Positions 4,986 through 55,399 of a stretch of 64,000 nt of DNA are shown piece by piece; the stretch's first letter is position 1, and each line of letters begins with the position of its first letter. The notes beneath the pieces are model-generated. The model ran no database searches. It was not told the DNA's origin and saw only the letters and a list, made by a program, of their open reading frames with translations. The stretch is taken from the NCBI GenBank assembly GCA_963813715.1, contig CAWFAK010000008.1, positions 384,001 to 448,000 of the forward strand. Direction: 5' to 3'. A program made the translations under genes and the position numbers. Origin of the DNA: an uncultured Planctomycetaceae bacterium. GTDB taxonomy: Bacteria; Planctomycetota; Planctomycetia; Planctomycetales; Planctomycetaceae.

Positions 4986-5434
4986 GCGGAACACGCGTGT
5001 CGCGCCGCTCTACGCGAATCGCGTTCCGATTTCGCGGATTTTGACGAGCCGGCCGCATCGGCGTCGCGCGCGGACAGAAAGTTCCGTCCGTTGCGACCGT
5101 CACAGCTTTCCAAAAATTCGACGCCCCATGCGCTTGCGCGTTCGCTCGTTGGCAAACGCTGAGGGTTGTGCTGCCGGTGCCCGGCGAAGGGCAAATGAGT
5201 TCCGCCCGGTCCCCGATTTTGACGCAAGATTCCTAGATCACGTGTCCTATGCTTGGCAGGATGGGGGTTCGCGAGAATCGTTTCGAATTGGCCCCGATTT
5301 TCACGCCCGCAATTCCTTTGCATTTGGCTACGGGCGTGCTGAGAATGGAGAACGATCTGCTCATGACGGCAGATGGGATTGGGGCAGTGAGTCCGTCATA
5401 AAATTTTGCGCAGCAGATTCTGGAGAATGCATTC

Positions 5435-6849
5435 ATGAGAAGCATCGGGGTTTTTGCACTGCTGGCCGTCGCGCTTTGTGCCGCAAATAGCGCGCAAGCC
5501 AGTTACTACTGCGGAGCCTGCAGCTACAGCTGTTGTCCGCCCGTCTGTTGTCAGCCGACGGCGTGTTACACCTCTTGCAAGGTCGAGCGGCAGACCTGCT
5601 ACCAAACGGTGTACGACTCGGTCTGCGAACCGCAGCAGTACACGGTGAACCGGATCGAGTACGAGACGGTGCTCGACCGTCATCAGGAGACGTGTTATCG
5701 CACCGTGATGGAGACTCGCTATCGCGACGACCATTACACGGTCTGCAAGCCGATCTGCGAGACGGCCTGCCGCGAAGAGCGCTACACGGTGCAGAAGCCG
5801 GTCGTGGAGACCTCGTATCGCGAGTGTCACTACACGGTACAGAAGCCGGTGTGGACGACTGAAGAGCGCGAATGTCGGCGGCTCGTCTATAAGCCGGTGG
5901 TCGAAACGGTCGAGCAGCAAGTGCAACGCTGCGTGATGGACCGCGTCGTCGAGACGGTCAACACCGAGCGCTGCTGCACGGTGATGCGTCCGGTGACGAC
6001 CTACAACACCGTTCAGCGCGATTGCGGCACCTGGCAAACCGTGACCGACTATCATCCCGGTCCGGTCGTGCTCCGCACGTATTGCGATCCGTGTTGCGGT
6101 CCGCGGACCTGCCCCGTGCAGTGCCCGGGCTTCACCACGTGCCGCCGCGTCTGGTGCCCGCGCGTCGTCTGTGAACAAGTCCCGTGCACGAGCTACCGCT
6201 GTGAAGTCGTGCGGCAGCAAGTTCCGGTGCAAGTCTGCCGGATGGTGCCGCGGACGATTTGCGAAAAAATTCCGGTGCAGGTGTGCCGCACCGTCTGCCA
6301 GGAAGTCGTCGAGAAGTACCCGGTGCAGCGCTGCAACTACGTCTGCGAGCAGATGACGCAGCGGATCCCGGTGCAGACTTGCCGCATGGTGTGCGAAGAG
6401 CACACCCGCCAGGTGCCGGTGACGACGTATCGCATGGTGCAAGAACCCCGCACGTGCCGCGTGGCTTACTGCGTTCCGACGCAGGTGCCCTACACGGTCG
6501 AGCGGTGTGTCCCGCGCTGCGTGTGCAAGAACGGTGCCGGTGACCTGCACGCGGTTGGTGTCCAAGTGCGTGCCGCGACAAGTTGCCTACGAGGTGTGCC
6601 GGATGGTCCCTGTGACCGTCTGTGCTCAGCCGGACTGCCCGTCGTGCGCGGTGGGCGGTTGCACGACCTGCGGCGCAACGGCGCCGGCCGGTCCGCTCAA
6701 GCCGCAGGCCGAGGTCGCCTCAGCCGCAGGACACGCGGAAGCCGCCGATGCAGGTGATTCCTCCGGTCAGCCCGCCGGCCGCTCACGAGCCGGGAGTGAA
6801 CGAGGGTTCGCCCGCGAGCCAGCCGTCGACGACCGGCCCGAAGGTTTGA
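5435..6849 (+). CDS. Secreted Cys/Val/Thr-rich YTV-repeat protein (planctomycete cell-envelope type); frameshifts near 6530 and 6720
   Basis: Signal peptide MRSIGVFALLAVALCAANSAQA; ~11/22-aa periodic repeats YTVCKP, YTVQKPV, VQVCRMVP; Pro-rich tail ending GPKV*. Confidence 0.8.
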
Positions 6850-9107: not shown

Positions 9108-10639
9108 TCAGTCGCGCTTCGGTCCCGGCTGCGCCGCACTCGAAGTGCTCGCAACACCGGCATTCGCACCGGTGACGCGGGCGACCAGCTCGCGGCGGAG
9201 CACTTTGCCCAGGGTGTTCTTCGGCAGGGCGTCGACGAATAACAGCGTCCGTGGCCGCTGGTAGACAACGAGCCGGTCGCTGCACCAGGCGTGCAGCCGG
9301 GCTTCGTCCAGCGTGAGATCGCTCCGCACGATGGCGACGGCCACGCGCTCGCCCCGCTCGGCATCGGGCACGCCGAAGGCCGCGCACTCCTTCACGCCCG
9401 GGCATTCGCCCAGCACTCGCTCGACGACCTGCGGATAAACGTTGTAGCCGTTGGTGATGATCAGGTCCTTCTTGCGGCCGGCCAGCGTGAGGAAGCCGCG
9501 CTCGTCGAGCGAGCCCAGATCGTCCGTGTCGAACCAGCCGTCGCGAAAGGCGGCCCGCGTCTCCTCGGGTTTGTGCCAGTATTCGCGAAACAAGTTCGGG
9601 CTGCGGATGAGCACGCTGCCCACTTCGCCCGGTTCGACGGGCGAGCCGTCGCTGCGGACGACTTTCCGCTTCATCTCCGGCAGCGGCAGCCCGACCGATC
9701 CGCTCGGCCACGGTCCGGCCAGCGGCAGGCTGGTGATCACGTACGACTCGCTCATGCCGTAACGATTGATGACCGGGTGCCGCAAAATCTCTTCCAGCTC
9801 GGGGAGCACTTCCGGGCGAATCGGTGCCGAGCCACAGGTGAAGAGCCGGGTGCGACTCCACGAAGCGGCGGCGGTGCGAAATTCGGCCGACTCGAGCAGG
9901 CGGTAATAGATCGCCGGCACAGCCATGAAGACCGTCGACTCGCCGATCGCCGCGAGGGTCCGGCCGACGTCGAACGATTCTTCGATGCGAATGCAGCCGC
10001 CGGCGAGCCACGTCAGATGCGTGGCGAACTCCAAGCCATGAATGTGATAAAGCGGCAGCACGTTCAGCACGACGTCGTCGGCCGACAACTGCCAGTACGC
10101 TCGTAAAGCCCGCAAGCTGCCGGCCGCGCCGGCGTGCGAGTGGACCACGCCCTTCGGCCAACCCGTCGTGCCCGAACTGTAGAGGATCATCCGCGGGGCG
10201 TCGGCGGTGACGTTCGGCTCGTGGAACGGGCCGGGGGTGCTGTCGTCGACGTCGGCTTGCACAATGGGCGGCCGCGGCAGCTCGGGCGCGAGCGCGGTGA
10301 CGAGCGGCAGCTCCTCGGCCCCGGCGATCACCATCCGAGCTTCGCTGTCGCTCAAAAAGTACCGCATCTCTTCCCGCGTGAACCGCGGATTGAGCGGCAA
10401 CGGACAAGCCCCGGCATAGAGCACACCCAACTGGGCCAACAGAAACGGAATTTTGTTCCCCGTGTAGAGGGCCACGCGGTCCCCCGGCTCGACCCCGCGC
10501 CTGCAGCCGGCCAGCCCAGCGACGAGCCTCAGCATCGAGCTGGCCGTACGTGAAGACGCGTCCCTCGTGCGCCAGGGCCGGTCGCGCACGGCTGACTTTC
10601 GAATACGCTTCGCAGCTCGTGCAAGAAGTGCCTGGTCAC
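9108..10639 (-). CDS. AMP-binding acyl-CoA synthetase, malonyl-CoA synthetase (MatB)-like; N-terminal frameshifts
   Basis: YSSGTTGWPKG, RYGMSE, GRKKDLIITNGYNVYP, LPKNTLGKV; N-terminus reconstructed from GTG at 10639. Confidence 0.8.
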
Positions 10640-10780
10640 ATCGCGAGTTTACCCAAACCACGCCCGCCGCACGATCCGGCGAGCGACGTGTGGCAGCCCG
10701 CCGACTCTCGCAACGAATTCGCCTGACGCCGCGCTGTGGAAATGCTCGGGAATCGCGCGAGCCGTCGCTAGAATAAGGGC

Positions 10781-11086
10781 ATGTGGACGCCAATGCCCGA
10801 CGCATTGCCTTATTTGACCCTGCGCGAAAGACTCCTGATCGATTGCTGCTGGTTGTGCGGCGCGTGTCTTTGGGTCTGGTTCCGCCCACGTGCCAAACGC
10901 TTCGTCAACGTGCCCCCGTGTGATGACACGAGGGAACCCACGAGCCGGCCGGGAGATTGGCTCTGGCTGCGGTTGTGGGTCATCTGGCCGGATTTCTTCG
11001 GGCGGGCCATGCTCGTGCTGCTTCTCACCGTTGCGGTCGTCAGCTGGGTGAGCGACTTGATTCAGTACATACCCGTCGCCCTTTGA
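10781..11086 (+). CDS. Hypothetical membrane protein
   Basis: Trp-rich hydrophobic segments; AAGGG before ATG. Confidence 0.4.
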   Translation: MWTPMPDALPYLTLRERLLIDCCWLCGACLWVWFRPRAKRFVNVPPCDDTREPTSRPGDWLWLRLWVIWPDFFGRAMLVLLLTVAVVSWVSDLIQYIPVAL

Positions 11087-11182
11087 CCTCCCGGCTCGAT
11101 GGCGAACTTTGCTTCACGATACGAGCCCCAGTACCTACTCGCCTCCGTGCAACGCGCTTCCCGTTCCCGTTACAATCGCGGC

Positions 11183-11275
11183 ATGTCGGACCCTCTCAGA
11201 ATCCTCGCGACGTTCTTGCTGCTCGTGATCGGGGGCTATCTCGTCCGCGCCACCTACCGCCGCTGGAACGATTGA
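11183..11275 (+). CDS. 30-aa single-TM microprotein, probably leaderless (MSDPLRILATFLLLVIGGYLVRATYRRWND)
   Basis: TACAAT -10 box at 11171-11176 only 6 nt before ATG; hydrophobic core followed by a basic tail. Confidence 0.5.
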   Translation: MSDPLRILATFLLLVIGGYLVRATYRRWND

Positions 11276-11330
11276 TTCCAACTTTCTGACCTAAACCCGC
11301 GACTTCTCCCGTGAGTTAGGATCCCCGCGC

Positions 11331-12954
11331 TTGGAGCCTTCCGCGAACAACGAACCGAATAAGGCACCGAGCAACGAACGCACCGTGCTGGCGGTCGACC
11401 TGGGCAGCGGCGGGCCGAAAGTGTCCGTCGTTTCCGAGCGGGGCGAGATTCTCGCGCATGCCCGCGGCTCCGTCTCGACGATTTTCGTCGAGGGGGGCGG
11501 GGCCGAGCAGGATCCGCATGCGTGGTGGCGGGCCGTCGATCAGGCAGTGACGGCCGTCCTCTCGCAAGCCGCGCGTCGATCGCAGCCGGATCGTGGCCGT
11601 CTCCTGCACGGGGCAATGGTCGGTGACCGCGCCGGTCGACGCGGGCGGGCAGCCGCTGATGAACGCCGTCCACTGGATGGACTCGCGCGGCGCACCCGAC
11701 ACGCAAAAACTCACCGACGGCCTGATCAAGATCGACGGCTACGGGCTCGGGCGGTTGCTGCGTTGGATCCGGATCACGGGGGCCGTGCCGACGCACGCCG
11801 GGGCCGATTCGCTGGCGCACATTTTGTTTCTCAAGCGGGCCCGCCCGGACGTCTACGCGCGGACGCACAAGCTGCTCGAGCCGATGGATTACCTCAACCT
11901 GCGGCTGACCGGGCGGTTTTCGGCCTCGTACGCGACGATCTTTCCCTACATGCTCACCGACAACCGCGACGTCAACCACGTGCACTATCACGACGGGCTG
12001 TTGCAGCTCGCCGGAGTCGATCGCGAGAAGCTGCCCGACCTGGTGCCGGTGGACGCGGTGCTGGGGCCGCTCTTACCCGAGATCGCCGCGGCCTGGCAGC
12101 TCTCGCCGACGACGCAGGTGGTGTGCGGCACGACGGACAATCAGACGGCGGCGCTCGGAGCCGGTTCGATCGACGACGCCGTCGGCTACATCTCCGTCGG
12201 CACGACCTCCTGGCTGAGTTGCCACATCCCGTTCAAGAAAGCCAACCTGCTGCGGGCTATCGCCACGATGCCGTCGGCCATTCCGGGGCGGAACATCGTC
12301 GTCGCCGAACAGGGGGCGGCCGGCCGCTGTCTCGAAGCCGTGGTCGAACGGCTGCTCTGCCCCGAACACAACTATTCGCTCGACGCCGAGCGGAGCGCGG
12401 TCTACGCCAAAGTGTTCGAGGAAGCGGCGACCGTGCCGCCCGGCTGCGAGGGTTTGTTGTTTCTGCCGTGGCTCAACGGCTCGGGCCCGCCGGCGGCTGA
12501 CGGCCATGTCCGTGGCGGATTTATCAATCAGACGCTGCGAACGGGGCGTCCCGAGGCGGTGCGGGCCGTGCTGGAGGGGATTGCATTCAACTTGGGCTGG
12601 CTCTTGCCGCACGTGGAAAAATTCGTCGGCCGGCGGTTCGAGTCGCTGCGGCTGGTGGGCGGTGCGGCCGAGTCGGACCTTTGGTGCCAGATCTTCGCCG
12701 ACATCCTGGAGCGGCCCATTCAGCGAATCGCGTCGCCCCGGCTGGCAACGGTTCGCGGGGCGGCGCTGCACGCGCTGATGTCGCTGGGAATCCGTCGGCG
12801 GGACGAGATTTCGGCCCTGGTGCCGATCGCCGGCGTCTTCGAGCCCGACCCGCGCAATCGAAAAACGTACCGGGAGCTTTCGTCGGCGTTTGTGAAATGT
12901 TACAAGCGCACGCGGGGGTTGTTTGGCCTGCTGAACGGCACCTCGCATCAATGA
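11331..12954 (+). CDS. FGGY-family carbohydrate kinase (xylulokinase-like); frameshift near 11575
   Basis: VLAVDLGSGGPKV, EQDPHAWW, HWMDSRG, GTTDNQ, LLFLPWLNG, RAVLEGIAF, VGGAAES. Confidence 0.88.
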
Positions 12955-12955
12955 C

Positions 12956-13088
12956 GGCGAGCGGCGGGTGTCAGCCCGCCGGTTCTACGGCCCGTATCCA
13001 CGTCGCTCTTCATCAGCACGACAGCAAGAGAAAGCAAAAAAAAAGACAAAAGACCGAAGAACCCGGAGGCTGACACCTCCGGCTCGCC
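12956..13088. repeat. REPIN-like inverted pair, family B (GGCGAG-stem-TGTCAG-stem), copy 1
   Basis: Units at 12956-12983 and 13061-13088 in opposite orientation, with a spacer containing an A-rich stretch. Confidence 0.8.
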
Positions 13089-13124
13089 AAGAAAATAAAA
13101 CGCTCACACGATACGAGGATCGCC

Positions 13125-14560
13125 ATGGCAACCGACGTCGCTCCGCAGGTCGATCTGGCCGCTGCGCTCGATCAGATGATGCATCCCTATCGGGGCACGC
13201 TCCCCGAGTTTGTGCGGCTCCCGGCGGCGGGGATCAAGCGCCGGACGTGCTCGGCACGATGCAGGACCTCGAGGAGCGCGAGGCGGGCCGCTGGGAAAGC
13301 GGCCACGCATCGGGCGCGGTGTACAACGGCGATCGCGAGCACATCGACTTCGTCAGCCGCGTGTACACGCTGCACTCGCAGGTCAATCCGCTGCACCCCG
13401 ACCTCTTTCCGAGTGCCGCCAAGTTCGAGGCGGAAATCGTCTCGATGACGGCCCACATGCTCAACGGCGACAAGGCCGGCGCGCCGGTGGGGAGCGAAGA
13501 GGGAGTTTGCGGGTCGGTCACGTCGGGCGGTTCGGAGAGCATTCTGCTCGCGATGAAGACCTATCGCGACTGGGCCCGCGCGACCAAGAACATCACCGAG
13601 CCCGAGCTGGTCGTGCCGGTCTCCGCTCACGCGGCCTTTCACAAAGCGGCCCAATATTTCGGCCTCAAGCTGCGGGTGATTCCGCTCGACGACCAGTTCT
13701 GCGTCGACGTGCCGGCGATGGAAGCGGCGATTAACAAGAACACGATCGCGCTGGTCGGCTCGGCCTGCAATTTTCCGTACGGCACCATCGACTCGATCGA
13801 GCAGCTATCGGCCATCGCGCGGGACCGAGGCGTTGGCCTGCACGTCGACAGCTGCCTGGGCGGATTCTTCCTGCCGTGGGCCGAACGGCTCGGCCAGCCG
13901 GTGCCGCCGTTCGATTTTCGGCTGCCCGGCGTGACTTCGATGTCGTGCGACACGCACAAATACGGCTACGCACCCAAGGGAACGTCGGTCGTTCTCTATC
14001 GCGGGGCGGCCCTGCGACGGTTTCAGTATTTCACGACGTCCGACTGGCCGGGCGGACTCTATTACTCGCCGACGTTTTCGGGCAGCCGGCCGGGCGGCCT
14101 GAGCGCGGCGTGTTGGGCGGCGCTCGTGTCGATCGGCGAACAAGGCTACCTGGACGCGACGCGGCGAATCCTCGACGCCGTGGCCGTGATGAAACAGGGC
14201 GTAACCGAAATTCCCGAGCTGCGGCTGATGGGCCGCACGTTCGGCGTCTTCGCCTTCATGTCGACGAGCGAGAGCTTCAATATCTACCAGCTGCTCGATC
14301 GCATGTCGGAAAAAGGCTGGAGCCTCACCGGCCTGCAACGACCGGCGGGCATCCACGTGAGTCCCACGCTGCGGCACGCACAGCCGGGCGTCGCCGAACG
14401 CTTCGTCGCCGATCTCAAGGATGCGGTGGCGCTCGTCCGCGAGAATCCCGACTTCATGGGCGGCATGGCACCGATCTACGGTCTGGCCGCAACGGTCCCC
14501 GACCGCTCGCTCGTCCACGGCATGCTGCAGCAGGTGATGGACGTTTTTTACCGCGTGTGA
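13125..14560 (+). CDS. Sphingosine-1-phosphate lyase-like PLP-dependent enzyme (group II decarboxylase fold); frameshift near 13240
   Basis: SGAVYNG, NPLHPDLFP, TSGGSESILLA, LHVDSCLGGF, SCDTHKYGYAPKG (PLP lysine), WPGGLYYSPTFSGSRPG. Confidence 0.85.
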
Positions 14561-14612
14561 CTCGCGGTTGCCGGTCGGAAGAGCGTCGCCGGAGGTCTGC
14601 ACGACTCAGGCG

Positions 14613-16030
14613 TCAGCGCGGCCTAGACCTCGGGGATAAACACGCCGCGATCGTAGTCGCCTCTTTGCAGACGGCGCGATGGTTGATTTTGGGATCTTCC
14701 ATGCGCACCTGGATGTAGTAGTGCCCCTTTTTCGGCGGAGTGAAGGTGTGCACCCAGATGCCATATTGCGAGTTCGACGTGGCCGCCTTGCAGAACTCCA
14801 GCGGCGCCCGATTTTGACGCCGGCCATTGCGGCCCATCCCGAGCGGAAGCGGATCTTCATCTTCTCGGAGCGCACTGGCCCGCCCCAGGTGATGCCGACG
14901 ATGCGATAGACGATTTTGCCGCCGAGCTTCCACTGCTCGACACGCACGGGCAGGGCCGTCTGGTCGATCGTGGCCGCCTTATAGTCTTTGGCGAGCACTG
15001 GACCAAACGGATGCTTGAAGAAGCCGGGTTGCGGGCCGCGCGACGTATCCTGGTTCGTGCGGTCGCTAAACTCCAGCATCTGCCAGGTCGCTTTCGCGTG
15101 GTCGTCAACGAATTTGATCTCGTTGACCCACTTCACCTCGCTGCAGCCATACCAGCCCGGAATGACTAAGCGGACGGGCGCGCCGTGGTCTTTGGGCAGC
15201 GGCTGTCCGTTCATCCGCGTCGCCAGGAACGCGCCGAACTGGACGAGCTGTTCGATCGGAAAGATCCAGCTGCATGTGGGCCACGAGTGCTCCTTATAAG
15301 GAGGTCCGTGGTCGGGCAGGTTGGTGTCGTCGTCGAAACCTTGGATCAAAACGGCTTTCGCCTTGTCGGTTGGCTCGGCAATTTTGATCACCCGCTCGAT
15401 CGGGATCCCCGCCCACTCCGCGACGCTCAACAGCCCAAACTTGAGCACGTTGCCGTTTCCGGAGCACTCCAGCAAGACCGGGCCCTTCGGCTCGACATAA
15501 CGCTCCAGCGACTTGAGCGGCAGCTGCTGCGGCTTTTTGACCAGGCCGTGAATCTTGATTTTCCAATCGGCCGGCGGACGGAGCAGATCGGGATATTCAG
15601 TCCGGATAAAGAACTTGTCGGCGGGAGTCAGTCGTCCCTCGGGCGTAAACAGCGAGGCCAGGTCGATACACAACCGGGCGCCGTGTCCGCCGCCCGAGTT
15701 CGTGTAAAGCGGTGTTCGAAAGCTGTCTTCTTCCTGCGAGCGAAAGGGCACATAGCCGAGGAAGATGCCGCCGGCGCACGGATCCGGAAAGTCGGTATCG
15801 AGCAGTTGGCCGGATGACGTCAGGGCTAGAGGTTCGCCCTGGAGCAGGCCCGCCGAGCCGCCGCCGGTAGAATCCAACAGTTGCGTGTAGCGATTCCACG
15901 CATAGGCCCCCGCGCCGATTGCGCCCATGGTCGCCGTGGCGGCGAGCAAGAACCCGCGGCGGGTCAGGCCCGCCCGCGCGGCGAGGGCCAGCTCGATTTC
16001 GGAGGGGGCTAGCGGGACGCCGCGACGCAT
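14613..16030 (-). CDS. Tat-exported molybdopterin-dependent oxidoreductase (sulfite oxidase family); frameshift near 14825
   Basis: TRRGFLL twin-arginine motif, LLECSGN Moco-ligating Cys, MNGQPLPKDHGAPVRLVIPGWYG...VKWV. Confidence 0.85.
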
Positions 16031-16081
16031 TGAGTTCACCACCGGCTCGCCGCAGCGGTCGCCGTCACTACACCCAGTCGT

Positions 16082-17362
16082 CTAGTGGACGGTCAGCCCC
16101 GAGGCTGCGACGGGCAGCAGAAATCCGTCGGCGTCAAAATCCATCTCGCAAGGTCCGTCGAGGATTTCCAGGTCGCTGCGCCGCGAGACCTCCGGCAGAT
16201 AAGCCTCGCTAACCAATACTTCCGAAAGGTGTAAAGTGTTGGAAATTTGCACGACCCGGGCGTTTTCCGGCTCGTCCAGCCCGACGGTCGCCAGGGCCGC
16301 CTCGAGCACGTCCCGATCTGTGTCAAAGGTCACCGGGACAGCGGCGGCGGCCGGGTGCCCGCCAGTGAGGGCGTTGATCGTCGTGATGTTGACGTCCATC
16401 TGCTCGACGGTCCGCCGGTTGGTGAATTCCGCCAGGCCGATGCCGCAGGCGTTGCCGTGCGTCTCCTCGGTGAGACCGCGAATGAAGATTCGCGTGCAGG
16501 AAACGTCGTCCCGCCCTGCGTCCGGGTTGCCGACGAACTTGCGGCCGATGACGTTGGTGTCCATCCCCGAGCCGCTGATGTTCTTGCCGATCTCGTCGAC
16601 GATCAACAGGCCGATCCGCTTGAACGGCAGCCGGGGCATCCACTGCCGGGCCAGCGCCAACAGCTCGCGCTCGCGGTCGTAAAACCTTTCCGGCGGCACG
16701 GCTTCGATCAGGGCCGTTTGGTCGTACGCGTTTTCCACGATCGCGACGCCGCAAAGCACCCTGCACTTTTGCAGCACGACCGCGGCCACGGCCTGAATGA
16801 TTTCGGCAAAGCTGTAATCGATGATGGCCCGGTGGTAGATTTTGGCCCCTTCGTGCTTGCCCAGGCCGATCAACATCATCTTGTGCAAGCCCGACTCGAT
16901 CTCGCCCACGAACCCCGTGTGCGGCTTGATCCGCCCGGCGACGATCACATGGTCGCACTCGAACGCGTGGCGATCGAAATGCACGGGAATCCGCTGCGGC
17001 GTGCGGTCGACGATCACCGTCTCCATCGACGAGCGGATCTCGGCCCCGGTGAACTCTTCGGTCACCCCGTACGACTCGACAATCGCCCGCTGCGCCTCGG
17101 CCGTCCCCCCGCCATGGCTACCCATCGCCGGAATGATCACCGGCTTGGCGCCGAGCGAGCGGACGTGATCGCAAATCGCCTTCGTAATCTCGGCAATATT
17201 CGCAATCCCGCGACTGCCGACGGTAATCGCCACGGTCTGCCCGGGCCGGACTTTCTGGCCCAGGTTGAGCCGGCGGAGCTGGCCGGAAGTCTCCGCCGCA
17301 ACGTCCACGACGCGCTGGACTTCGAATTTCTGGCGAACGCGAACCATCTTGGGAAAAGGCAT
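16082..17362 (-). CDS. Lactate racemase (LarA)-domain / DUF2088-like protein
   Basis: VAITVGSRGIANI, PAMGSHGGGTAE, RIKPHTGF, IGLGKHEGA, GKNISGSGMDTNVIGR. Confidence 0.8.
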   Translation of the reverse strand: MPFPKMVRVRQKFEVQRVVDVAAETSGQLRRLNLGQKVRPGQTVAITVGSRGIANIAEITKAICDHVRSLGAKPVIIPAMGSHGGGTAEAQRAIVESYGVTEEFTGAEIRSSMETVIVDRTPQRIPVHFDRHAFECDHVIVAGRIKPHTGFVGEIESGLHKMMLIGLGKHEGAKIYHRAIIDYSFAEIIQAVAAVVLQKCRVLCGVAIVENAYDQTALIEAVPPERFYDRERELLALARQWMPRLPFKRIGLLIVDEIGKNISGSGMDTNVIGRKFVGNPDAGRDDVSCTRIFIRGLTEETHGNACGIGLAEFTNRRTVEQMDVNITTINALTGGHPAAAAVPVTFDTDRDVLEAALATVGLDEPENARVVQISNTLHLSEVLVSEAYLPEVSRRSDLEILDGPCEMDFDADGFLLPVAASGLTVH

Positions 17363-17594
17363 CGTGAACTCCGACTGAGCCGTGGCCGATTTCGGCCCCT
17401 CTCTAATCAGTCTAAGTCCTCTTCGCAAGGGACGAAAGAGCGTCTGCGACCCACCTGAGAATGATCAGCCGTGCCAGCGGCGCGTGAAGAGCACATCGGC
17501 CGCGCGAGCGGCTCGTCAATAACACTGTGCCGAGAATTCGGAATGGCGAATCCCTGCGGCGCGTCCTGCCAGGTTAAAGTTGCGAGTCGCGCGG

Positions 17595-18554
17595 TTACTT
17601 ACGGTCGACCGACTGGCGGAATTCGCCCCAGTTCGTGAGCGTGATGCCAAGGCGGGCGAGTTGGGCCCGGGTGTCCGGATCGGTGACGAAGCGGCGGTCG
17701 CTGTCGCGGAGTTGGGCCGAATCGGTGATGGCTTCCAGCTCGGGATTATCGACGCCGCAGTGGACGATCAGTTCGTTCACGCCCGGCGGCAGCGTCTCGA
17801 AGGCCTTGAAATAGTTGTGGGTGCGGACGCTGTGTTGGCCCTTGTTGTAGAGCATCACGACCGACGACAGCACGGGGAGATGGTGGGTGTCGAGCATGTC
17901 GAGCAGCTGGCGATCGTGGCCGCGGAGGGCCGGATACTTGGCCTGAAACGCCTGGAGCGATGCCTGGCGGGTGAACATCACGGGCAGGTTGTAGGCGATG
18001 CCCAGGTTGACGTAGAGCTCCAAAAAGTCGGGACGGTCGAGCAGCGTACCCATGTGCGTGTCGAGGTGCGAGAGCCGAATGCCGAAGGCCTTGGCCCGAT
18101 CGATTTGGGCCCGCAGCTCGGTTTCGGCCTCGCTGAGCTTGGCCTTGGCAACGACGGGCGGGTTGTCGCGATGCAAATAGCCCTGCTCGTCGAGCAGGCT
18201 GGGGACTTGGTCGCGCGGCGCCACTGGACCCCAGCGATAGTTTTTCCACTCGCAGGTCAGCGTGAGATGAATGCCGTAGTCGCGCTCCGGGTGCTTCCGC
18301 GCGTAGGCGGCAAACTCCGGAAACCAGGCGCACGGAACCAGAATGCTCGTCGACGTGACGACGCCGTGCTCGAGCCCCTCGATCGTCGCCATGTTCGCCG
18401 AGTGCGACATGCCGGCATCGTCGGCGTGAATGATCAGCGAGCGCGCCGGCTTGCCCGCGGGCGAATCATCGCCACGCGCCGGAGCGTGCGACGCGAGAAT
18501 CAACAGTGCAACTAGTGAGGACAATCCGATCGAGCGGCAAATCATCGGTGACAA
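17595..18554 (-). CDS. Secreted ChbG/YdjC-family carbohydrate deacetylase
   Basis: Signal peptide; LIIHADDAG, GIHLTLT, SHLDTHMG motifs. Confidence 0.88.
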   Translation of the reverse strand: MSPMICRSIGLSSLVALLILASHAPARGDDSPAGKPARSLIIHADDAGMSHSANMATIEGLEHGVVTSTSILVPCAWFPEFAAYARKHPERDYGIHLTLTCEWKNYRWGPVAPRDQVPSLLDEQGYLHRDNPPVVAKAKLSEAETELRAQIDRAKAFGIRLSHLDTHMGTLLDRPDFLELYVNLGIAYNLPVMFTRQASLQAFQAKYPALRGHDRQLLDMLDTHHLPVLSSVVMLYNKGQHSVRTHNYFKAFETLPPGVNELIVHCGVDNPELEAITDSAQLRDSDRRFVTDPDTRAQLARLGITLTNWGEFRQSVDRK

Positions 18555-18966: not shown

Positions 18967-19949
18967 CAACTTTTTTCATCTCGTGACGTAAGTCGTTTTT
19001 TGGCATCGCCGTCGCAAGGCGGTAAAGATGAGCTTGCCTTGCACCCAGCGGTGGACGCGTCGGTGGCCGCGAACCCAAGCGGGCAGTGCCTGCAATCCGG
19101 CGCTCCAAGTGCTCAAGTATCCGAAGTAGCGTTCGATCGCGTTACGTTCTTGATGGAGGGCACGGCCGAACGAGCTTTGCGGATTCGAGAGCAGTTCAAG
19201 AGATCGCAGCCGAGCGGGACTCTGACGCCGATGGCCACGGCGACGGCCAAATCCGTAACGCGGAGGTGCCACCAGTTGCACGCCGCGTTCGAGGCAGACG
19301 TCGTGTAACTGGTTCGAGTCGAAATTTGCATCGGCGAGCAAGTACCCTTGCACAGCCGCTTGCTTCAACATCCGCCGCCCCATCGCCCGCTCATCCTTTT
19401 GCATGGGAGCCACGCGCCAGGCAGCGATCGAGCCATCGCTGCCGACCACCGCGTGTAGCTTGTACCCTTTGGCTTTGCAGCCCGCGGCGCGGCCGTACCC
19501 AGCTTGCCGGTCTTTCGAGCAACCGCCGATCGGCAGAGGCTTGCCATCGATCATCCAATACAGGGGCTTGTTCCCACGAGGAGCCAGTTCAGAACGTTCG
19601 ATCTCTTGCAGCATTTGCTGGACCTCGGCACTCCGCAGTCGTCTCGACATGGTGCTCGACGATGGCAATTTGCGGCGACGCTCATGCAGCGGCCAGTTCC
19701 GAAGATCGCACGCCCAGGACACAGGCCGACCGTGCAGAACGGCCCACAGCCAAACCTGCACAATGTCGTCTGCCCCGTATCGTTCCCGCGTGCACCGACG
19801 AAGCTTGCTCGCCTGTTTGAGAAGGATCAAAATCGCCTTCCAGAGTTGGTGTTCCACATCCGTCTCCTTTCGTGTGGTTACGATTGAGACTATGTGTAGC
19901 ACCAACTTTTTATTGCGCAAGTCTTTATGACTCCTCGCGCAAAAAGCTG
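18967..19949 (-). mobile_element. Insertion sequence copy 1 (983 bp, IS982/IS5-like DDE), inserted in a family A REP
   Basis: Short terminal IRs CAACTTTTT / AAAAAGCTG, flanked by TCAC at 18963-18966 and 19950-19953; near-identical to 41215-42199. Confidence 0.92.
18976..19857 (-). CDS. DDE transposase (DDE_Tnp_1-like), 293 aa
   Basis: IDGKPLP, GYKLH, LLADANFD, RNAIERYF; GTG start with AAAGGAG RBS. Confidence 0.9.
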   Translation of the reverse strand: MEHQLWKAILILLKQASKLRRCTRERYGADDIVQVWLWAVLHGRPVSWACDLRNWPLHERRRKLPSSSTMSRRLRSAEVQQMLQEIERSELAPRGNKPLYWMIDGKPLPIGGCSKDRQAGYGRAAGCKAKGYKLHAVVGSDGSIAAWRVAPMQKDERAMGRRMLKQAAVQGYLLADANFDSNQLHDVCLERGVQLVAPPRYGFGRRRGHRRQSPARLRSLELLSNPQSSFGRALHQERNAIERYFGYLSTWSAGLQALPAWVRGHRRVHRWVQGKLIFTALRRRCQKTTYVTR

Positions 19950-20032
19950 TCACGCTTCGGGTTGGTAAAGACGCCCCTGGCTCACGCTTCGCGTTGGTGT
20001 GTCGTCTTACTAACCCGAAGCGTCAGCGCGGG
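19950..20032. repeat. Family A REP cluster (CCTCGCTSACGCTTCGGGTTRGT): interrupted unit, direct unit 19976-20000, inverted unit 20009-20032
   Basis: Same motif at 32341-32398, 42200-42251 and 46213-46275. Confidence 0.85.
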
Positions 20033-55292: not shown

Positions 55293-55399
55293 GGCGAGCG
55301 TCGGGTGTCAGCCCGACGGTGCTTGATTCCCGTTTTCAAACTGAACCAACGCAAAACCAACAAGCCCAAGAACCGGCCGGCTGACACCGGCCGCTCGCC
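55293..55399. repeat. REPIN-like inverted pair, family B, copy 2
   Basis: Units at 55293-55320 and 55372-55399. Confidence 0.8.

Follow-up and report, generated by a model that had tools for sequence, protein, structure and literature searches.

Organization of the locus

The window analysed here is a stretch of 64,000 nucleotides from an uncultured Planctomycetaceae bacterium. Two genes were identified on its forward strand, separated by a spacer of 170 bases. The first (positions 11331 to 12954) carries the Pfam domains FGGY_N and FGGY_C and encodes an FGGY-family kinase of a subfamily linked to sphingosine-1-phosphate lyase (SPL); its true start may be a GTG codon near position 11382. The second (13125 to 14560) carries the Pfam domain Pyridoxal_deC and encodes an SPL of the StSPL type, without an N-terminal membrane or flexible segment.

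Within the spacer, a palindromic element of 31 bases occurs in two inverted copies. As read from the sequence, copy 1 (12956 to 12986, forward strand) comprises GGCGAGC, a GC-rich hairpin with the loop TGTCAG, and GGTTCT; copy 2 (13058 to 13088, reverse strand) has a stem which is altered on both sides with the pairing retained. Based on a strict definition of the hairpin, 51 copies were identified in the 7.49-Mb genome, 23 of them with an identical stem. The flanks of the copies are conserved and the changes in the stems are compensatory. A second inverted pair is located in the window at about 55298 and 55373. The element is thus a short imperfect palindrome present in many copies and in inverted pairs, and was classed as REP-like. 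Many contigs from four soil sequencing runs cover exactly the interval 12956 to 12986. The copy between the kinase and SPL genes sits between stop and start codons, the intergenic position having been checked for the copies in the window. A sequence scan of positions 10700 to 14800 revealed four terminator-like sites, compared with 3.7 expected, and no promoter-like sites.

The original prediction of co-oriented FGGY and SPL neighbours divided by a REP pair was borne out by the Pfam domains and by the inverted palindromes of the spacer. Both genes are present as it described; neither is a single open frame in the window, each being interrupted by a single-base break which is considered below.

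Identity of the lyase

The product of the second gene matched StSPL, the solved Symbiobacterium thermophilum enzyme (PDB 3mad, UniProt Q67PY4), over residues 7 to 478 with 609 bits (E 4.6e-182). The scores were 424 bits for the Burkholderia SPL and 397 for human SGPL1, versus 87 for MfnA and 84 for glutamate decarboxylase. Its best Pfam and NCBIfam models were Pyridoxal_deC and the MfnA tyrosine decarboxylase, the latter with a score (210.6) below the cut-off of 299.4.

Using the list of 14 catalytic and phosphate-binding residues given in Table 3 of PMC6148460, all 14 were found to be kept in the window protein, one of them (T169) as Ser. In the PLP site these are the PLP-binding lysine of the motif DTHKYG (K311 in StSPL numbering), the PLP aspartate (D274), the sandwich His and Cys (H201 and C276) and the phosphate cup (G168, T169, H310 and S353). 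The pocket for the substrate phosphate (Y105, A103, N126, H129 and K317) and the entry residue Tyr482 are likewise complete. Among 59 SPLs linked to a kinase of this subfamily, K311, D274, H201, C276, G168 and H310 are invariant, as are Y105, N126, K317 and Y482, while H129 is found in 58 and A103 in 48, with Ser in another 10. Counted over the list of 14, nine residues are invariant and the rest mostly vary conservatively. Based on these matches the window protein is classified as a sphingosine-1-phosphate lyase and a close relative of StSPL, and it is predicted to cleave sphingosine-1-phosphate (S1P). StSPL itself has been shown to break down S1P both in vitro and in blood; its natural function was described by its authors as "still unknown", and they named no kinase partner (PMC3148216).

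Identity of the kinase

An intact orthologue of the kinase, from the relative G002, scored 244.9 bits against the XylB model (NCBIfam TIGR01312), which is below the cut-off of 380.25; the larger piece of the window gene scored 195.2 bits. An AF2 model of the kinase (pLDDT 80.8, pTM 0.86) has the FGGY fold. In Foldseek searches with this model, xylulo-, glucono- and glycerol kinases were matched with TM values of 0.75-0.88 and no closer subfamily was found, and the matches in the ESM Atlas were to "xylulokinase family" clusters only.

When aligned to GlpK and XylB of E. coli, the linked subfamily was seen to keep the DxGT/S phosphate-1 motif (iDLGtsgpK), the catalytic Asp (GtpD; D245 of GlpK and D233 of XylB) and the GGxA ATP motif (GGgA.S..WCQI.ADv). 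In this subfamily the polar Arg-Glu pair of GlpK is replaced by Trp-Ser, and GlpK Phe270 by Trp. Two motifs, TDNRD and WltCHvPFKK, are confined to it. By its alignments and model scores the kinase is assigned to a distinct FGGY subfamily. Pfam identified FGGY_N and FGGY_C only, with no DAGK catalytic domain on the protein; the kinase is no member of the sphingosine/diacylglycerol kinase family, although it may be like sphingosine kinase in function.

The distribution of xylose isomerase was also determined. It was present in 37 of 41 related genomes, 25 of which belong to the 29 without the SPL-linked kinase. In the source genome (G000) the isomerase gene is located on contig C12 and the kinase gene on contig C8, and no xylose-isomerase family occurred among the clusters of flanking genes. 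The kinase is the best XylB-like match of the source genome, where no FGGY gene passes the XylB cut-off. The expectation that this is something other than a plain xylulokinase therefore stood, the score being under the cut-off and the isomerase being unlinked and frequent in relatives without the kinase.

Conservation of the pairing

The kinase subfamily gave at least 575 matching stretches in species-representative genomes, and linkage was counted on the best 80 loci. SPL was adjacent and co-oriented in 72 of these. Of the other eight, five lie on contigs that break off no more than 200 bases from the kinase gene, and SPL adjoins the kinase in 72 of the 75 loci with enough downstream sequence; three loci with adequate flanks (L069, L085 and L092) have no adjoining SPL. 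Based on the record titles, the paired loci come from Planctomycetota, Chloroflexota, Desulfobacteraceae, Myxococcota, Leptospirales, KSB1, Omnitrophota, Iamiaceae, Symbiobacteriaceae and Gammaproteobacteria.

In an all-against-all clustering of 960 open reading frames from the flanks, only two families were widely shared, namely FGGY (74 loci) and SPL (67 loci); the family ranking next was found in nine loci, all of one genus. A Pfam scan of 95 of 238 selected flank frames, the other 143 being covered by clustering only, identified no common transporter, regulator or dehydrogenase; unrelated housekeeping genes were found instead.

The kinase subfamily (E < 1e-100) and SPL (E < 1e-40) were present in the identical 12 of the 41 relatives. 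G034 and G039 carry the two genes unlinked, with SPL-like genes that deviate at one to three of the 14 sites. The pairwise identities of kinases and SPLs are correlated (r = 0.75, 1485 pairs), a result which shared organismal descent would also give. The gene-neighbourhood statistics and the matching presence in relatives thus confirmed that the pairing is conserved. Our search of the literature found no paper on a pairing of FGGY kinase and SPL. Recurrence of the pair in very different bacteria suggests, on genomic grounds, an unrecognised kinase feeding the lyase.

A fused sister clade and other neighbours

Thirteen protein clusters of about 1037 amino acids were found in which an aldehyde:ferredoxin oxidoreductase is fused to an SPL domain. 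On contigs of the Desulfobacterales type the fusion is followed by an FGGY gene. Downstream sequence is available for three of the metagenome loci, and in each of these the fusion is directly followed by an FGGY kinase with 35-40% identity to that of the window. A scan of metagenomes with the oxidoreductase-SPL alignment, the patterns for which came from the oxidoreductase half, identified the fusion in four of 80 loci; the other 76 are oxidoreductases standing alone, and neither SPL nor FGGY was matched in them. Two joined reading frames of SPL and FGGY_N (P0137 and P0145) were rejected as fusions. Their domains are partial and they are perhaps gene-calling artefacts of frame-shifted assemblies. 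Fusions of MFS_2 to SPL were also encountered.

A divergently transcribed AMP-dependent ligase with the Pfam domain AMP-binding is encoded on the reverse strand at about 9108 to 10648, with two frame breaks in the assembly. Its presence agrees with the acyl-CoA ligase that had been noted near the pair; as a member of the pathway it was rejected. The best solved relatives of this protein are malonyl-CoA synthetases (4fuq, 4.5e-93), the gene adjoins the pair in only nine loci, all of the planctomycete genus, and G003 keeps a remnant of 60 residues. For these reasons the ligase was excluded from the module.

The single neighbour which points to lipids is an Mpo1-like gene adjoining the kinase in G039. 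Members of this family occur in 28 of the 41 relatives. As a general third gene, the Mpo1-like 2-hydroxy-fatty-acid dioxygenase was rejected: beside the kinase it is found only in G039, and it is missing from all other fetched flanks.

Proposed pathway and substrate

We propose that the two genes form a self-contained kinase-lyase module for 2-amino-1,3-diols. The likeliest substrates would be free sphingoid long-chain bases, an assignment which we favour by a modest degree. In the first step the FGGY-type kinase would use ATP to phosphorylate the terminal C1 hydroxyl of the amino-diol. By analogy with StSPL, the amine would then be bound by the PLP lyase as an external aldimine, and retro-aldol cleavage between C2 and C3 would follow. 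This is expected to yield phosphoethanolamine together with an aldehyde, which could be oxidised to the acid in general metabolism. Candidate substrates are sphinganine, sphingosine and phytosphingosine, presumably acquired from the surroundings, and the module might serve as a source of carbon, nitrogen and phosphoethanolamine or in the removal of membrane-toxic bases. The FGGY subfamily would then be an unrelated functional analogue of sphingosine kinase.

The source genome has one alpha-oxoamine-synthase gene, which scores as BioF, and no obvious serine palmitoyltransferase was identified in it; since the genome is 82.6% complete, absence of the latter is unproven. That no linked transporter was found is weakly in keeping with a lipophilic substrate. 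The two-step pathway put forward originally, in which a non-homologous kinase feeds the SPL, gains support from the comparisons above, with either a sphingoid base or a small amino-polyol as its presumed substrate.

The same logic of kinase and retro-aldol lyase could operate on a small water-soluble amino-polyol, such as serinol, threoninol, 2-amino-1,3,4-butanetriol or a 2-amino-2-deoxy-alditol, giving a short aldehyde and phosphoethanolamine. This is possible but rather unlikely. The FGGY kinases characterised to date take small polyols and ketoses; as far as is known, their substrates are all small sugars or polyols soluble in water, and one that resembles a lipid would be without precedent. 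Likewise, the kinase has its nearest models and structures in xylulokinase, gluconokinase and glycerol kinase. The subfamily motifs TDNRD and PFKK are partly polar or acidic and would suit an ammonium-polyol head group, and the aldehyde:ferredoxin oxidoreductase family is best known for short and aromatic aldehydes. In nature, however, small amino-diols are rare next to sphingoid bases, and no sugar or amino-alcohol transporter was linked in any examined locus. On the side of the lyase, StSPL, to which the window protein is so similar, cleaves the C18 substrate S1P, and the entry residue Tyr482 is the same in every linked SPL. A long hydrophobic tunnel leads to the active site of StSPL, according to two reviews (PMC6148460, PMC10243590), and this also argues for the sphingoid bases.

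It is improbable that the lyase homologue works as a decarboxylase or other PLP enzyme whose substrate is a phosphorylated amino acid, as in the conversion of phosphoserine to phosphoethanolamine, with the FGGY protein supplying the phospho-compound. The group II decarboxylase fold and the identity of the best models would agree with such an activity, but the score to the solved SPL is some seven times that to MfnA, the phosphate-binding and entry residues specific to SPLs are all kept, and the oxidoreductase fusion of the sister clade fits a lyase which forms an aldehyde. The original view of the PLP enzyme as more than an amino-acid decarboxylase is in line with these results.

Integrity of the reading frames

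Alignment to G002 attributes the frame shift of the kinase gene at 11569/11570 to a single extra base. The Pfam FGGY_N match is split, with positions 2-63 in the first frame and positions 66-245 in the following one. Three-frame translation and alignment to G002 revealed that one base is missing from the SPL gene behind 13240. Both genes are unbroken in G002, the closest relative, with 97-99% amino-acid identity. Contigs from all four soil runs, which belong to four studies, omit one base at 11569/11570 and insert a C behind 13240. In one contig piece of 312 bases the inserted C is the sole difference from the window.

Orthologues in G009 and G010, two metagenome assemblies with k141 names, also served for comparison with the window genes. 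Between 5.2 and 21.3 kb, five of ten genes are broken, with eight breaks in about 12 kb (YTV three, AMP-ligase two, and FGGY, SPL and Mo-oxidoreductase one each). Because both breaks are missing from all four runs and half of the neighbouring genes are also broken, the breaks are most likely assembly errors and not decay particular to the kinase and SPL. The kinase-lyase module is therefore probably unbroken in the organism. The presence of a frame-breaking single-base indel in each gene would also be expected if the two were true pseudogenes and the module were dead in this strain and alive in its relatives. We give this little credence: the near-identical contigs have neither indel, the breaks extend over the neighbouring genes, and the source genome scores 82.6% complete with just 18 contigs, a pattern which points to assembly error.

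Significance

That the adjacency is meaningless, the kinase being a xylulokinase or other sugar kinase and the lyase acting alone on imported S1P, would agree with the kinase being the best XylB-like match of a genome that has a true xylose isomerase and no FGGY gene above the cut-off, but is very improbable given an SPL neighbour at nine-tenths of the best loci in many phyla with no other common neighbour, the exact co-occurrence in relatives, and an isomerase which is unlinked, frequent where the kinase is missing and not represented in the flank clusters.

A broader proposal, for which we consider the case about evenly balanced, is that the FGGY subfamily is a widespread and unrecognised bacterial sphingoid-base kinase with a fold unlike that of known sphingosine kinases. 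With an StSPL-type lyase it would make up a portable two-gene cassette, allowing bacteria from many phyla in soil and sediment to feed on free long-chain bases or to detoxify them. In strict anaerobes the cassette would be extended through fusion of the lyase with an aldehyde oxidoreductase of the tungsten type.

Work on bacterial S1P lyases has treated them as structural models and as virulence factors. A kinase partner would offer an explanation of how free-living bacteria get the phosphorylated substrate of SPL, and a conserved kinase of another fold would amount to a non-orthologous replacement in sphingolipid catabolism. If the proposal is true, the FGGY family gains a new class of substrate, the sphingoid bases of eukaryotes and Bacteroidota have a turnover route in soils and anoxic sediments, and there is also an explanation of what StSPL, an enzyme much studied, does in nature.

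Comparison with known systems

The window SPL is, like StSPL, predicted to be soluble, with no transmembrane helix, and shares with it the PLP lysine, phosphate cup, substrate-phosphate residues and entry tyrosine. An orthologue from Symbiobacteriaceae (L053, 757 bits to StSPL) adjoins an FGGY kinase of the same subfamily. The window protein differs in the Ser in place of Thr169 and in a start about 40 residues later, so that most of the proline-rich flexible N-terminus described for StSPL is absent (PMC3148216).

The two-domain fold (TM-score 0.76-0.88 to solved members of the family), catalytic Asp and ATP motifs of the kinase are common to XylB and GlpK, but identity to these is only 20-27% and the score remains under the XylB cut-off. 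The acceptor site reads Gln-Trp-Ser in the window kinase, Gln-Arg-Glu in GlpK and Gln-Met-His in XylB, and the extra TDNRD segment and the WltCHvPFKK motif are further differences. Instead of xylA or glpF, the gene has SPL as its linked partner.

In chemistry the proposed module would be like the degradation of long-chain bases in eukaryotes (Lcb4/5 or SphK1/2, then Dpl1 or SGPL1), with phosphorylation at C1 followed by PLP-dependent retro-aldol cleavage; the oxidation of the aldehyde downstream is mirrored by the oxidoreductase-SPL fusions. Eukaryotic sphingosine kinase has the DAG-kinase fold, whereas the window kinase has the FGGY (actin-like ATPase) fold. Unlike the components of the eukaryotic pathway, the bacterial enzymes are soluble and encoded in a two-gene cluster, and their hosts are mostly not known as makers of sphingolipids.

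The dihydrosphingosine kinase of Porphyromonas gingivalis (PMC9045371) resembles the proposed activity of the window kinase in being bacterial and in phosphorylating a sphingoid base. Its host belongs to the sphingolipid-producing Bacteroidota; the enzyme is of the DAG-kinase type, and no FGGY protein is known to be involved.

Conservation of the kinase-lyase pair

The linkage of the FGGY kinase gene (11331-12954, + strand) with the gene for a sphingosine-1-phosphate (S1P) lyase (SPL)-like enzyme (13125-14560, + strand) is very strong, crosses phyla and is exclusive. Within the genus, the lyase gene was located directly downstream of the kinase gene in all nine kinase-bearing genomes. An alignment of the kinase subfamily, scanned against one genome per species, matched at least 597 stretches, at least 575 of which encode relatives. 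The best 80 of these were examined for pairing, and at 72 a lyase gene was found beside the kinase gene (71 with a lyase match of at least 100 residues, plus L058, a 71-residue stub at a contig end). Five of the eight misses end less than 200 bases past the kinase gene; loci L069, L085 and L092 had enough flank and no lyase was found there. Based on record titles, the paired loci are from Planctomycetota, several classes of Chloroflexota, Desulfobacteraceae and other former Deltaproteobacteria, Myxococcota, Leptospirales, KSB1, Omnitrophota, Iamiaceae, Symbiobacteriaceae and Gammaproteobacteria. These neighbourhood statistics were the main test of the original prediction, and by them the pairing is conserved.

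When 960 ORFs from the best 80 loci were clustered, no family was widely shared apart from the kinase (74 loci) and the lyase (67 loci). The third commonest was present at nine loci, all from the planctomycete genus, and the flanking ORFs scanned with Pfam (95 of 238 selected) were unrelated. Of the 41 nearest genomes, an identical set of 12 carries the kinase subfamily and the lyase, the two genes being unlinked in two of these (relatives G034 and G039). Pairwise identities of the two proteins were correlated (r = 0.75; 1485 pairs, 55 loci), for which common descent alone could suffice.

Features of the two enzymes

The two genes encode an FGGY kinase and an SPL, with conserved active-site residues. 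The kinase possesses the complete FGGY architecture (Pfam), and its AlphaFold2 model (pLDDT 80.8, pTM 0.86) superimposed in a structure search on xylulo-, glucono- and glycerol kinases with TM scores of 0.75-0.88 and identities of only 20-27%. In a computed alignment with E. coli GlpK and XylB, the catalytic Asp is retained together with the phosphate-1 and ATP motifs. The acceptor site differs, reading Gln-Trp-Ser as against Gln-Arg-Glu (GlpK) and Gln-Met-His (XylB), with Trp at the position of GlpK Phe270. The motifs TDNRD and GTssWltCHvPFKK are peculiar to this kinase. The subfamily is well set apart among the relatives, its members matching at E 1e-105 or better and other FGGY paralogues at 1e-38 or worse.

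An intact orthologue of the lyase matched the solved SPL of Symbiobacterium thermophilum (StSPL) over residues 7-478 (E 4.6e-182, 609 bits), followed by the SPLs of Burkholderia (424 bits), human (397), yeast (372) and Legionella (201), as against only 84-87 bits for tyrosine and glutamate decarboxylases. Fourteen SPL residues, covering the PLP lysine, aspartate, sandwich, phosphate cup, substrate-phosphate pocket and entry tyrosine, are tabulated in a review (PMC6148460, Table 3; see also PMC10243590). The window lyase keeps all 14, Thr169 being Ser, and in an alignment of 59 kinase-linked SPLs nine are invariant and the others nearly so.

Proposed reaction and substrate

The kinase would phosphorylate a 2-amino-1,3-diol on its C1 hydroxyl, giving the substrate of the lyase, which would then yield phosphoethanolamine and an aldehyde. 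Sphingoid long-chain bases are the favoured candidates, because the lyase is very close to StSPL, an enzyme that splits C18 S1P and contains a hydrophobic tunnel, because the entry tyrosine is invariant in the lyases, because no linked transporter was present at the loci examined, and because, among natural compounds of the 2-amino-1,3-diol type, these bases are by far the most common. The source genome carries a single alpha-oxoamine synthase gene, which is BioF-like (440.5 bits, cut-off 426.45); the substrate would therefore be of extracellular origin. The natural substrate could instead be a small amino-polyol. The motifs peculiar to the kinase subfamily are partly polar and we know of no FGGY kinase that accepts a lipid, so this remains a serious rival to the sphingoid bases.

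XylB is the best curated model for the kinase, whose 244.9 bits fall well short of the cut-off of 380.25. This gene is the best XylB match in the source genome, none of whose FGGY genes exceeds the cut-off. A true xylose isomerase gene is found on a different contig of this genome. However, 37 of 41 relatives have xylose isomerase, among them 25 of the 29 without the kinase subfamily, and it is absent from the flank clusters (960 ORFs, best 80 loci). On these scores and distributions the kinase is not a plain xylulokinase, and its occurrence tracks that of the lyase instead of xylose metabolism. The putative kinase-lyase pathway of the original prediction has withstood all three findings named beforehand as able to refute it: an unconserved pairing, a plain xylulokinase and a PLP enzyme that only decarboxylates amino acids.

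Fusions and neighbouring genes

Among longer proteins searched for the lyase, thirteen clusters (P0123-P0135, approximately 1037 aa) have AFOR_N and AFOR_C domains, a tungsten-type aldehyde:ferredoxin oxidoreductase, joined to a C-terminal SPL domain with 41-45% identity to the query; members named by NCBI are labelled Desulfobacterales or Deltaproteobacteria. A metagenome scan gave four loci of this fusion, including L116 (8001-13024), L117 and L119, and an FGGY kinase follows directly downstream in all three with downstream sequence. That kinase is 35-40% identical to the window kinase (E down to 1e-132) and diverges more at the signature motifs. In this fusion the lyase domain is physically joined to an enzyme that consumes aldehydes, and the kinase is again its neighbour. 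In two further clusters (P0140 and P0141; 913 and 970 aa) SPL is fused to an MFS_2 transporter, a family which includes lysolipid carriers. Two ORFs combining SPL with FGGY_N have only partial domains; these ORFs may be artefacts and were not taken as fusions.

The divergent AMP-dependent ligase noted originally is indeed nearby, and is rejected as a member of the module: it is nearest to malonyl-CoA synthetases (4fuq, 4.5e-93) and adjoins the pair within the genus only, relative G003 retaining a 60-residue remnant. YTV-repeat and sulfatase genes are also neighbours of the pair in the window (Pfam) and help to assign it to the Planctomycetaceae. Downstream, 14606-18554 (- strand) is a conserved block whose synteny extends to most genomes of the genus. 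Its genes encode a sulfite-oxidase-like molybdopterin oxidoreductase with a TAT signal, a nickel-pincer-cofactor isomerase that exceeds the cut-off of NCBIfam group 22 (527 bits), and a YdjC-family protein. At 18976-19953 (- strand) there is a DDE transposase gene, and a transposase gene 55% identical to it directly follows the lyase gene in the closest relative, G002 (L013, 12803-13645), which shows insertion-sequence activity around the locus.

In G039, genes for an Mpo1-like 2-hydroxy-fatty-acid dioxygenase, a TetR regulator and an esterase are located just upstream of the unlinked kinase (L022, 5132-9203); this Mpo1-like neighbour is a single case from a family common among the relatives. 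The unlinked SPL-like gene of G039 (L107, 1362-10922) has TetR, penicillin-amidase-family (N-acyl amidase) and patatin-like phospholipase genes beside it, a lipid-flavoured context seen once.

Spacer and reading frames

In the 170-base spacer a 31-base element is present twice, in opposite orientations (12956-12986, + strand; 13058-13088, - strand). It is composed, in this order, of GGCGAGC, a hairpin that is GC-rich and has the loop TGTCAG, and GGTTCT. The stem differs on both sides between the copies with pairing kept. A strict search of the genome (7-base stem, at most one mismatch) yielded 51 hairpins from 1480 occurrences of the loop hexamer, with conserved flanks; 23 of them share the same stem. 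The window has another inverted pair of this REP-like element near 55298/55373 (about 55298-55395), and many unrelated contigs from the four metagenome runs match exactly 12956-12986. Given the multicopy hairpins and inverted pairs, "REP pair" was a fair description of the spacer.

Neither gene is one open frame in the window (G+C approximately 64%; genome 7.49 Mb, 18 contigs, completeness score 82.6%). The first piece of the kinase gene starts at 11331 and carries FGGY_N positions 2-63; the second, in the next frame from approximately 11570 to the stop at 12954, carries FGGY_N 66-245 and FGGY_C (Pfam). The lyase gene begins with ATG at 13125, moves one frame back after 39 codons and stops at 14560. 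Compared to G002 (97-99% amino-acid identity), in which both frames are open, the window has one base more in the kinase gene and one less in the lyase gene. Alignment with the orthologues of G009 and G010, two metagenome assemblies of the genus with k141 names, revealed frame changes in five of ten window genes between 5.2 and 21.3 kb: three in the YTV-repeat gene (5266-6843), two in the AMP-ligase gene (9177-10648), and one each in the kinase, lyase and molybdopterin oxidoreductase (14626-16042) genes. The breaks outside the pair suggest that single-base indels are frequent in this assembly. Region 11300-14600 is present near-identically in soil metagenome runs from 18 studies, and all four runs compared (four studies) have contigs without one base at 11569/11570 and contigs with an extra C behind 13240, this C being the sole difference from the window in one 312-base contig. 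Since five of these ten genes are broken and contigs of all four runs lack both breaks, we conclude that those in the pair are most likely errors of the assembly and that both genes are, in all likelihood, unbroken in the source organism; true strain-specific decay retains a small chance. The adjacent, co-oriented genes of the original prediction are thus real, each being frame-broken as assembled.

Relation to known S1P lyases

A link between an FGGY kinase and S1P lyase was not found in the full-text literature searched; most subscription journals are outside its coverage, and a published link could have been missed. In the one bacterial paper containing both "FGGY" and "sphingosine" the terms occur in unrelated passages. 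The closest known enzyme, StSPL, breaks down S1P in vitro and in blood, and its authors (PMC3148216) describe what it naturally does in S. thermophilum as "still unknown". The pair order is kinase followed by lyase on the same strand except in one Symbiobacteriaceae MAG, where the lyase is first and matches StSPL with 757 bits.
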